A DNA stretch of 64,000 nt from TPA_inf: Saccharomyces. Its lineage: Eukaryota. The DNA lies in assembly GCA_000146045.2 (NCBI GenBank), contig BK006947.3, positions 672,001-736,000 of the forward strand, written 5' to 3'. The stretch's first letter is position 1, and each line of letters starts with the position of its first letter. Below, piece after piece: positions 56,426 through 61,303 of the stretch. Both the position numbers and the translations under genes were made by a program. Below the pieces are notes generated by a model. The model saw only the letters and a list, made by a program, of their open reading frames with translations, searched no databases and was not told the DNA's origin.

Positions 56426-58186
56426 TTACACACCGTCTCTCAAATTGACAGATTGCAAATACCATCTCTTAGTCCAAAGTCTTATCCTCTTACCATAGTA
56501 GTACATTGGTAAAGCAAATGCAGTAATCCCAAAGTTGATGACAGCTAAAGCAATGTAAGTATTTTCAGTACCAGATGCAGCTAGCCAATCAGAACAGGTA
56601 AAGGTGAAAATGCAAGATATCGTGTTGTTAATAATAGCAGTACAAACCATACCTTCCAAAACCATATCGGGGTAACAATCCATTAAATACGCCATCGCAA
56701 TATCACCAGAACAACCCCATGCAAACCCAACAAAACCCAACCCGACGTATATAGCTTGCCAAGGCCATTGTCTAGCGGTACCGATACCAAACATCAGCAA
56801 ACCCGCTGGCCCAATAATTGCAGTTGCGATAGAGAAGTATAGTCTAAATTCTGCCTCTAAAATTCCTCTATTGTGACGAGCCATCCAAAGAACAAAGTAG
56901 TCACTAACAATGCCAGCACAGATACAACCGATGACTGCTCCAATAAGTGTGGGAACATTCATAATTGCGACACCAAAATCACTATAGTTCCATGGAGGTT
57001 CGTAGTAGGCGCTTTCTTGAGTGGTCAAATAAAACGTCAGGAAAACGTCTTGAATACCCCAAAACATACCAGACAACCACACTGGCGGGAATAAGAACAT
57101 TCTAAGGTTGATCTTTAGATATTTGAAATACTGTTTAAAACCGTAGCCTTTCAAATTAGTAGCTTTGGTTAATATTGCTACTCTTTTTGGGTATGGTTTC
57201 AAATGCTCTTTTGAACCATCAATCAATTCGCGAGTCTCAGGTATGGTAACTTCCTCTTCATTGTTAACTTCGAATTCAGCCGTCTCTGAAAGGTCTACAC
57301 CTTTCTCACCCATGGCTCCAGGAGTTGATAATTTAGCGTCAAGATGACGTTTCCTGCGCGACACGGCCGTATTGTCAGAGTTTTGTAAAGTGGTACCGTC
57401 TTCGTATCCCGATTGACAGCTGGTCAAAGGGGTCATATACTGGCCTCTGTCGAAGTACGTTTCTTCGCAGCCAAATATAATAGTTATTAAAAGGCCACCA
57501 GATATGATCACTGCGACCCAACCGACCCAACGGAAGTTGGTAAATGCAGATATGTACCCAGCGATCAATGGGCCCAAGAACGTACCGATACTAGTGCACA
57601 TGATATACACGGTCAATACGGAGCCCAATTGGTGCTGGAAAAAAATGTCGCTCAGGGACAGTTGCACCTGGGCTTCAGCACAGGACTCACTAATACCTAC
57701 AAACAACTGAGACCATATTGTGTCGCTCGTTCTTTTGGCCAAAGCAAACCAAAGCGCACCAAAGAGACCTAATGTGGTGCAAACTATGTACGTAATCTTC
57801 CTGCCATACAAGTTAGCAAATGGAGCCAAGAATAAAGTGGACCAACCAATACCTAGGAAAAGAACACCAGCCCCTGTGTTCATGGAATCGTAGGATATCC
57901 CATAAATCTCATTCAATGAGTCTTGAGCAGCACCAGCGTCGTTACTAGTAGCGGCGGTAAACGCAGTTATAAAGGCCATTAGACCAAAATGAGCCAATTT
58001 CCTCCAGCTAGACCAGTTCAGTGGATCATTTGGCGAGTATGATGGTTGAGGGATTAGGACGACTCCTGAGGAGGTTTTCTTCAATTTTGATTCGTATATA
58101 ATACCATTTTCCAAATTTTGGGAAGAATAGATGTTAAATGTGCCAGGAATATAGTCCGGATGATCCCTGTTGGTATATTTGTCCAT
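56426..58186 (-). CDS. HOL1: Hol1, MFS (DHA1-family) plasma-membrane transporter; polyamine/cation transporter, 586 aa
   Basis: 586 aa, 12 predicted TM segments, MDKYTNRDHPDYIPGTFNIYSS... Confidence 0.93.
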   Translation of the reverse strand: MDKYTNRDHPDYIPGTFNIYSSQNLENGIIYESKLKKTSSGVVLIPQPSYSPNDPLNWSSWRKLAHFGLMAFITAFTAATSNDAGAAQDSLNEIYGISYDSMNTGAGVLFLGIGWSTLFLAPFANLYGRKITYIVCTTLGLFGALWFALAKRTSDTIWSQLFVGISESCAEAQVQLSLSDIFFQHQLGSVLTVYIMCTSIGTFLGPLIAGYISAFTNFRWVGWVAVIISGGLLITIIFGCEETYFDRGQYMTPLTSCQSGYEDGTTLQNSDNTAVSRRKRHLDAKLSTPGAMGEKGVDLSETAEFEVNNEEEVTIPETRELIDGSKEHLKPYPKRVAILTKATNLKGYGFKQYFKYLKINLRMFLFPPVWLSGMFWGIQDVFLTFYLTTQESAYYEPPWNYSDFGVAIMNVPTLIGAVIGCICAGIVSDYFVLWMARHNRGILEAEFRLYFSIATAIIGPAGLLMFGIGTARQWPWQAIYVGLGFVGFAWGCSGDIAMAYLMDCYPDMVLEGMVCTAIINNTISCIFTFTCSDWLAASGTENTYIALAVINFGITAFALPMYYYGKRIRLWTKRWYLQSVNLRDGV

Positions 58187-58380
58187 CTGTTAAAAATTTA
58201 AGATTCACACTCGCAAACTTTCTTCTATAGTAGTTCTTTTCTTTATATTCGTTAGAAATGCAAAAGTTGCGAAGCTGTTTTGTTATATCCTGTAGATTGT
58301 AATATGATACTTCGATTCTTTCGGATTTAGTGTTTACTTGCTATTCTTCTAGTTTCAAATAAATAAGATAATAAGGGATG

Positions 58381-58401
58381 TCAACTTGGTAGTAATAGCA
58401 T
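58381..58401 (-). promoter_or_regulatory. HOL1: uORF in the HOL1 leader encoding MLLLPS-stop (ATG CTA TTA CTA CCA AGT TGA), about 195 nt upstream of the HOL1 ATG
   Basis: Read directly on the minus strand (+ strand TCAACTTGGTAGTAATAGCAT). From memory, a conserved MLLLPS uORF mediates polyamine/eIF5A-dependent translational control of HOL1. Confidence 0.65.
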
Positions 58402-59617
58402 GAAATAGTATCGTAAAATTAAGGATGCTAGCGCTTTCGACAACAAAATGGGCTTGTTTTATTTTTGCAGAGGAGGTTCAGTAAATATTACCTCAGAGAC
58501 TGATACAGATAATTCTTTCTTATTCGACTGCGTATTTATCTTTATCGTTTAGATTGAAGACAATAGACAATTAAATGAATCTATAGAAAGGTTAGGAAAT
58601 AGTCTAAACTACTATGGTTTGTTAACGGCGAGGTCTTTAGTTTAATTTTCTGTCTGGAAAATAACTTTATCCTAAAAAGAAAATTTTCATCAACTGCAAC
58701 TTTTTTTGTTATGCTTTTGTTCTCGCTAGGCGAAAGCTCCCTAAAAATATCCGTAGAATTTCATATGACACAACCAGGCCTTGATGTAAACGTCAAACTA
58801 CACATTTCTCAAAGCTTAGAGAGCTGATGCATGAAATTTTTGCATTGTGTGGTATTATATGTGACTTAAGAAAGTAATTGTACATCATAAGAGAGAAAAA
58901 TTCTGTTCAGAGAAGAACTATTTGAATATATTTTAAAAGATAAAAAAATGTCTTGGCAAAAATAAGTAAGTAATGAAAAAGAAATTTTCTCGAAGAAAAA
59001 AATGAAAAAAATGACTAAGTACTCAATATCCTTGATTTTCTAGTTTTCATTTTCCTCAAAAAAACTTGTCCACATTCATTCTCTGAATCGTTCTTCTTTG
59101 GTATATACTATCATGCGAATACGTCTTTTTTCTTTTGATATTAAAATATCTACAGACTATTTTGTGCACCTATAAAATAAATTTTGTCATGACTTGTAAT
59201 TTTCCCATAATCGGGACTATTTAAGGACCAAAAATACACTTTCGCCCAACTTGCTGCTTGACCAGGACTTTCGATAATCTCCTAATTACACTAGCTAGTT
59301 TTTACTTGTTATGGTTTGTGCAGTTGAGATAGCTCAGTAAAATGGCTTTATGTGTTCTGATCTTATAATGAATCGTAATCGAAATCCACATATTTCATTC
59401 ATACTGACGGAGAATAGGTTAAGCGCTGCTGCTATGGTACCTACTTTTACTCTTTGTGGTGTGCGATTAGTTTTGTAATACAAGGGTACTTCTGGTAATA
59501 AATATACAATTATTTTATGAAACTATGATACAGGAGGGCAGAAGTTCTGACGATAGAGCTACAAAAGGTAGTATCGACCTAGGAATTTATAAGGACTGTT
59601 TTTCTTTCAACAGCATC

Positions 59618-61303
59618 TTAGATGCATGTAGGGAAAACAACGATGCTGATAATGCAGAAAACTACTGCATACACTACTGAGGTGTAATTCATGTTTCCTG
59701 CAGTAACCGGTAGTGTATATGGGAAAGATAAAAATACCAGGCAGAACAAGGTCCATAGAATACATATAATATGAGGAATCATAGACATACGACGACGGTT
59801 AGGCCTGCTGACACAATTTACGTCACTCTCGATTCTATGAATGAATTTTTCCTTTTTAATAACGAACAGGAATATAAAAGAAGGAACTGCGTACGACATT
59901 AGTAACAGGGTGATGCATGCAGTGATAATTGCGTTGAAAGCGGTACTAGATCCCATAAATATACAGCCAATTATCGTTACACATATTTGTGACAAAAAAT
60001 GGGCATATAATGGAGACTTAAACCCAGGTGTCAACACTGCTAGCTTCTTCAAGGATTTGTTTCCCAAGGAACCCTCTTTATAAAATGGTGCGTAACTTTT
60101 CCCGAATGATTGGAGGATTCGACTTTGCCAGGTTCCACTTGCAATGCCTGAAACAAAACCTGTTGTGATACACATACATTGCAGGAAGACACTGAGATTC
60201 CTATTACCAGTGGCCTGGTAAAATATTTCTACGATAGGTAAAATAGACTCAACGACTGCCGTTTGGTCAGTGATGCAGAAAAACAAACCAACGCAATAAA
60301 TAAAACTAGTTACAAAGCCCACAATGATGGTAGTGATAATAACTTTGGGAACTAAGAAACGTGACTTACTATAACCCACTTCATCAATCATGTGCGTAGC
60401 AGAGTCAATGCCAACAAATGCCCAGATCGGATTGACCAAACCGACAACAAACGCCATTCCAGACGAATTCCAGCCTGTTTGATTATCAAAGCTCCCAAAT
60501 ATATTAGAAGCTTTGGGCCATGGGTCTACGGTGTTGTCAGATCTTGAAACAATACAAATAATGAAAGTCATGGCGAAAGACAATAGAGACGTATAGAGCC
60601 CAAACTGAGAGATATAGGGCAACGGAGTTGAATAAATGTTGAAAAGTGTCAAAACGGCATTGATACACTCGTAACCCACAAAAACATGCCAGTGCTTTAA
60701 CTCGTAGTCCGGATGCAACAACTTATGAATACCGATACAGCTCATTGACAAAGATGAGCAGATACTTGCGGTAGTAAAAATGGCACCGAAATAGTTCAGC
60801 AACCCTACAACCATGGAAGAAACCTTTTGAAATTTAGAAGAAACTTCCACGTTGAAAGTTTGACAATAATTCTCGAGGAACACTTCTTCATCATCGTCAG
60901 AAGGGTCCTCGTACTCAGGGGTTTTCAAAGTGACTGATTCTTGTTCCAACATTTTAAGAACCCAAAATGAACCACCGCTGCTGTTTGGCAGGATAGCAGC
61001 AAAATCTCCCAGAGATATACCACACATGAGACTGAAAAAAGCAGCAATTATCAACCCATAGATGATAAGCAGTGGCCCTCCACTGGCAATACCAACGGCC
61101 ATCGACGCTGAGATACCGACCCATGAGCAACTTAATGAGAACGCGATACCTAATAGGGACCACCAATTAAAGTGCTTGTCAAACTTGACTTCTGACCTTT
61201 CTGAACTAGACATTCTTATTTCCGTCCTGTGACGATCTGGAACAATAGACAAAAAAAAATTTCTTTCATATACAAATAGGAACACTGCCCCTACTCTGTT
61301 CAT
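59618..61303 (-). CDS. BIO5: Bio5, plasma-membrane permease for 7-keto-8-aminopelargonic acid (APC/amino-acid permease family), 561 aa
   Basis: 561 aa, 12-TM permease. Lies 52 bp downstream of BIO4 on the same strand. Confidence 0.9.
   Translation of the reverse strand: MNRVGAVFLFVYERNFFLSIVPDRHRTEIRMSSSERSEVKFDKHFNWWSLLGIAFSLSCSWVGISASMAVGIASGGPLLIIYGLIIAAFFSLMCGISLGDFAAILPNSSGGSFWVLKMLEQESVTLKTPEYEDPSDDDEEVFLENYCQTFNVEVSSKFQKVSSMVVGLLNYFGAIFTTASICSSLSMSCIGIHKLLHPDYELKHWHVFVGYECINAVLTLFNIYSTPLPYISQFGLYTSLLSFAMTFIICIVSRSDNTVDPWPKASNIFGSFDNQTGWNSSGMAFVVGLVNPIWAFVGIDSATHMIDEVGYSKSRFLVPKVIITTIIVGFVTSFIYCVGLFFCITDQTAVVESILPIVEIFYQATGNRNLSVFLQCMCITTGFVSGIASGTWQSRILQSFGKSYAPFYKEGSLGNKSLKKLAVLTPGFKSPLYAHFLSQICVTIIGCIFMGSSTAFNAIITACITLLLMSYAVPSFIFLFVIKKEKFIHRIESDVNCVSRPNRRRMSMIPHIICILWTLFCLVFLSFPYTLPVTAGNMNYTSVVYAVVFCIISIVVFPTCI

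Follow-up and report, generated by a model that had tools for sequence, protein, structure and literature searches.

Upstream of the transporter gene HOL1 of Saccharomyces cerevisiae lies a reading frame of only six codons. The question raised by this locus is whether so short an upstream open reading frame (uORF) is a regulatory device that controls Hol1 synthesis through its peptide, as an earlier note on this DNA had proposed, and how widely it is conserved. The window, i.e., the whole stretch of 64,000 nt that was analyzed (positions 672,001 to 736,000 of contig BK006947.3), contains the following elements; all coordinates are those of the window unless noted otherwise.

56426..58186, minus strand: HOL1 (YNR055C) main ORF, 586 aa, coding for an MFS_1 transporter (Pfam PF07690); the regulated gene

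58381..58401, minus strand: HOL1 uORF, MLLLPS followed by a stop codon; the reverse complement is ATGCTATTACTACCAAGTTGA, read as ATG CTA TTA CTA CCA AGT TGA

58187..58380, minus strand: ATG-free spacer of 194 nt, from the uORF stop to the HOL1 start

The 586-aa ORF showed 100% identity to a 90%-identity protein cluster containing S. cerevisiae Hol1p; with the downstream ORF identified as Hol1, the uORF is located in the 5′ leader of HOL1. According to the ORF listing of the window, HOL1 is followed in the upstream direction by a 561-aa permease-like, a 249-aa, and a 480-aa ORF, which we take to be BIO5, BIO4, and BIO3, respectively, of the S288C map. A permease gene, taken as BIO5 (compared region, 59618..61303), adjoins HOL1 in S. 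cerevisiae, S. paradoxus, and S. eubayanus, whereas at six Kluyveromyces and Lachancea loci (L001, L002, L004, L019, L020, and L021) HOL1 is situated directly downstream of an SSL1-like gene. HOL1 therefore changed its genomic neighborhood.

Read on the minus strand, the uORF extends from the A of its ATG at position 58401 to the final base of the TGA at position 58381. It is AUG-initiated, and the stop codon directly follows the six codons for MLLLPS, so that coordinates, strand, and peptide are exactly those put forward previously. The uORF stop is separated from the HOL1 start codon by 194 nt, which bears out the earlier estimate of about 195 nt, and the ATG-to-ATG distance is 215 nt. With a T at position -3, the start context TTC-ATG-C is poor, while the stop is found in the context TGA-C; the P-site Ser codon begins 15 nt past the A of the uORF AUG. 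TGA-C is a poor termination context in general.

The Saccharomyces Genome Database (SGD) feature chrXIV:730381..730401 and the uORF of the window both comprise 21 nt, and their coordinates differ by a constant offset of 672000. SGD release R64.4.1 annotates this interval as a new HOL1/YNR055C uORF, citing Vindu et al. 2021 (PMC11430078). Papers that cite Vindu et al. 2021 (Mol Cell 81:3904) state that polyamines inhibit eIF5A-dependent termination at Pro-Ser-stop, resulting in repression of Hol1 synthesis. The MLLLPS uORF and the involvement of eIF5A are likewise mentioned in PMC11506843, and a model for the HOL1 uORF that combines leaky scanning with a ribosome queue is outlined in a review (PMC11550727). 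When Pro5 or Ser6 is substituted and the uORF is still translated, polyamine repression is lost, as reported in secondary sources. We conclude that the element in the window is almost certainly the uORF that regulates HOL1 of S. cerevisiae, the gene of a high-affinity polyamine importer, its function being given as described in the secondary sources. The original proposal that MLLLPS is the polyamine sensor which represses Hol1 via eIF5A-dependent termination at Pro-Ser-stop is in line with the published statements on the work of Vindu et al. and with the SGD annotation. The uORF as such is already known; it was listed as functional in 2009, published in 2021, and included in the reference annotation in 2023.

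In a SATAY transposon study, the drug ATI-2307, which is imported via Hol1, selected against transposons inserted upstream of HOL1; this result fits an inhibitory HOL1 leader. [quoted passage not shown]

Following the literature, scanning ribosomes would reach the weak-context AUG of the uORF, and many would leak past it and translate HOL1. Ribosomes which translate MLLLPS would terminate at Pro-Ser-UGA, a step requiring eIF5A. High polyamine levels would interfere with eIF5A and slow down peptide release at the uORF stop, and the stalled 80S ribosome would block later scanning complexes by formation of a ribosome queue, leading to less Hol1 and to negative feedback on polyamine uptake. The sequence adds some detail to this scheme. 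The T at -3 would fit leaky scanning. Given that the P-site Ser codon is only 15 nt away from the AUG, stalling at termination would leave the ribosome on top of the uORF start or right next to it, where it would form a roadblock even to would-be leaky scanners. The conserved C after the UGA would favor slow termination, and the spacer of 194 nt, being free of ATGs, would allow ribosomes that have passed the uORF to reach the HOL1 AUG unhindered.

Such a mechanism presupposes that the uORF is transcribed as part of the HOL1 mRNA. This issue involves the region upstream of the uORF:

58402..58689, minus strand: ATG-free stretch upstream of the uORF, with the next ATG up at 58690; the transcription start is predicted to lie within this stretch

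The uORF ATG is the sole sense-strand ATG in the 503 nt preceding the HOL1 start, compared to 4.8 expected from dinucleotide-preserving shuffles of the upstream stretch (P=0.02). S. paradoxus (P=0.008) and S. eubayanus (P=0.055) likewise keep a single ATG, whereas 8 to 13 copies of CAT, the reverse trinucleotide, are present in these upstream stretches of the three species. Since the ATG is alone, recurs in three species, and is not accompanied by depletion of CAT, the uORF stands out above chance level. Depletion of ATG on the sense strand only indicates a long scanned leader which keeps a single ATG. In a list from 2009, which used 5′UTR lengths derived from tiling arrays, HOL1 appears with one functional uORF (PMC2813248). 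A UTR with exactly one uORF, together with the position of the next ATG at -504, would therefore place the start of the UTR between -215 and -504. From the tiling-array-derived 5′UTR and the sense-strand ATG depletion over about 500 nt, we infer that the uORF is probably located inside the HOL1 transcript.

Some other elements of the upstream region deserve mention. The segment at about 58533..58546 (minus strand, -360..-347) reads GATAAAGATAAATA; it is TATA-like and contains two GATAA motifs, and the S. eubayanus version is CTATAAAGAG. If this segment serves as a TATA-like element, transcription might start at about -315..-235, just upstream of the uORF. A second conserved block is found at about 58711..58767 (minus strand, -581..-525), with a three-way identity of 73–87%. 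The ATG opening the frame MKFYGYF-stop in this block reads ATA in S. eubayanus, and because the ATG is absent from this species, the block more probably represents a promoter element acting at the level of DNA than a uORF. Folding of 141 nt around the HOL1 uORF gave a z-score of +1.18, with 178 of 200 shuffled sequences folding equally well or better, so a special RNA structure was discarded as an explanation of the conservation around the uORF. A search of Rfam did not retrieve any family at E≤1 in the region 58100..59000.

Conservation within the genus was assessed by comparing the DNA upstream of the Hol1 orthologues of three species, S. cerevisiae, S. paradoxus, and S. eubayanus. In S. paradoxus, all 21 nt of the uORF are identical, and the uORF is positioned at -217. 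The S. eubayanus uORF, at -210, reads ATG CTA TTA CTA CGA AGC TGA and codes for MLLLRS-stop. Compared to S. cerevisiae, CCA is replaced by CGA (Pro to Arg) and AGT by AGC, with position, length, and start and stop contexts unchanged; this version is present in two assemblies and at three loci (L005, L006, and L007, at about position 1791..1811 of the locus). Five of the six residues and the exact length of the uORF are thus kept across the three Saccharomyces species, and the contexts TTC-ATG-C and TGA-C are invariant in all of them. The uORF is embedded in a larger block of conservation:

58358..58419, minus strand: conserved block around the uORF, -233..-172 from the HOL1 ATG, three-way identity 93%

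No other 60-nt stretch upstream of HOL1 is conserved as well as this block, which exceeds even the first 30 nt of the HOL1 coding sequence (86%). Three-way identity reaches 100% at -233..-204, as compared to a mean of 56% over 700 nt upstream. The block takes in 18 nt ahead of the uORF ATG and about 23 nt beyond the stop, and with three closely related species, constraint at the peptide level and constraint at the nucleotide level are inseparable in these values. The block might act at the level of DNA or RNA, for example as a core promoter, a start-site element, or an RNA structure, with the small ORF being incidental to it; the peak of conservation indeed takes in the 18 noncoding nt upstream of the ATG, and conservation runs on past the stop codon. 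However, ATG depletion is restricted to the sense strand, as would be typical of a scanned leader with one ATG kept, and the tiling-array-derived UTR takes in the uORF. An RNA structure, in particular, is supported neither by the folding nor by the Rfam result given above. We therefore attach an extremely low probability to this explanation and favor a translated uORF within the leader.

The two S. eubayanus loci L006 and L007 stem from one assembly (GCA_946408725.1) and are located on separate chromosomes, one of them at a distance of about 30 kb from the end of its chromosome. Both have the same sequence over locus positions 682 to 4952, comprising leader and coding sequence, and only their outer flanks differ, which points to segmental duplication or gene conversion in the recent past. 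Copies of HOL1 also occur in Lachancea fermentati, where they are arranged in tandem.

As judged from the sequences of these orthologues, the proline which has been called critical is not invariant even inside the genus, since S. eubayanus has Arg at this position. Such a change to Arg would not be expected of an essential proline. In the S. eubayanus lineage, which has a second, identical copy of HOL1, polyamine control of Hol1 may be weakened or rewired. Alternatively, the MLLL part of the peptide, the flanking mRNA, and the TGA-C stop context may have a larger share in the stall than they are now credited with. That the functional determinant comprises more than Pro-Ser-stop, as the MLLLRS-stop version of S. 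eubayanus and the invariant 18 nt before the AUG might suggest, nevertheless appears rather improbable to us.

Outside the genus, 18 HOL1 leaders were inspected, originating from Kluyveromyces, Lachancea, Zygotorulaspora, and from contigs coding for Hol1 proteins with 48–75% identity to that of S. cerevisiae. Most of these leaders carry several uORFs each, which are unrelated to MLLLPS-stop. An MLLLPS-like uORF was not found in 17 of the 18 leaders, K. dobzhanskii being the sole species with a look-alike. Its uORF, ATG CTC TTA CTG CCT GCT TAA, codes for MLLLPA-stop and is located 440 nt upstream of HOL1 (L004, 2061..2081); apart from the start codon, four codons match in the encoded residue, and three of these are synonymous variants of the S. 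cerevisiae codons. In simulations covering the first 14 leaders, a six-codon uORF matching MLLLPS at at least five of six positions occurred in about 0.07% of the leader sets. Because a chance match is expected at a frequency of only about 0.0007, MLLLPA-stop of K. dobzhanskii is probably a true relative of MLLLPS-stop. Its stop codon is TAA, and it shares part of its sequence with a 53-codon uORF read in a different frame. The leader of the Kluyveromyces relative represented by L001, with 91% identity between its Hol1 and the K. dobzhanskii protein, lacks an MLLLPS-like uORF.

Two further observations in these leaders were not counted as conservation. Copy 2 of L. fermentati has an MPPS-stop uORF with the same CCA AGT TGA ending, but a short uORF ending in Pro-Ser-stop was present in 19% of the simulated sets. 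The Pro-Ser-stop triplets in L001 and in Zygotorulaspora mrakii, which are not preceded by an in-frame ATG, were attributed to chance. When metagenomes were scanned with the Hol1 protein, two S. cerevisiae contigs were found to carry the identical uORF, and the distant yeasts retrieved were without it. As sampled here, conservation of the uORF is essentially limited to the genus Saccharomyces and is not Saccharomycetaceae-wide. The description of the uORF as conserved, which the earlier note had included, consequently holds for Saccharomyces, with an identical version in S. paradoxus and one residue changed in S. eubayanus, and fails at the level of the family, where 17 of 18 leaders are devoid of a similar uORF.

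These comparisons also bear on the idea that the uORF is a generic, sequence-independent barrier which constitutively dampens HOL1 expression, with the peptide and Pro-Ser-stop playing no sensing role. Retention of place and length of the S. eubayanus uORF in spite of the exchange of Pro for Arg would be compatible with such a barrier, as would the unrelated uORFs in the HOL1 leaders of most other yeasts. However, the papers citing Vindu et al. 2021 tie regulation to the Pro-Ser-stop motif and eIF5A, exact length and five of six residues are retained across Saccharomyces, and MLLLP of K. dobzhanskii is kept through three synonymous codon changes, which argues for constraint on the peptide. We consider a merely generic barrier very unlikely and retain the interpretation of the uORF as a polyamine-responsive element. 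The HOL1 uORF represents a clear case of metabolite feedback on a transporter via translation termination and eIF5A, and an example of a true regulatory element of 21 nt that is recognizable from raw sequence. Small new details contributed by the present analysis are the genus-limited conservation, the replacement of Pro by Arg in S. eubayanus, and the lone look-alike in K. dobzhanskii.

Among known polyamine-responsive systems, the HOL1 uORF described by Vindu et al. 2021 and annotated by SGD is the same element as that of the window, with which it has all 21 nt, the peptide, and the downstream gene in common, without any difference. The uORF of AMD1, the gene of AdoMetDC, resembles it in having six codons (MAGDIS-stop) and in repressing a gene of the polyamine pathway by a polyamine-dependent stall at termination. 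It differs in that the peptide is MAGDIS instead of MLLLPS, that it occurs in mammals, and that the protein under its control is a biosynthetic enzyme, not a transporter; dependence on eIF5A is not stated in the text cited. The upstream conserved coding region (uCC) of AZIN1, with a pause at PPW (Ivanov et al. 2018, Mol Cell 70:254, as cited in PMC11550727), is similar with respect to inhibition of eIF5A by polyamines, stalling in an upstream frame with a weak start, and repression of a polyamine-pathway gene by queuing. In the uCC, however, ribosomes stall during elongation on Pro-Pro-Trp in a frame with a non-AUG start, whereas the HOL1 uORF has an AUG start and the stall occurs at termination. 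The length of the AZIN1 frame, moreover, allows a queue to place ribosomes over its start codon, in contrast to the HOL1 uORF with only six codons. Since the distance from AUG to P-site codon is 15 nt, enhancement of start-site usage by queuing would be geometrically unlikely in HOL1.
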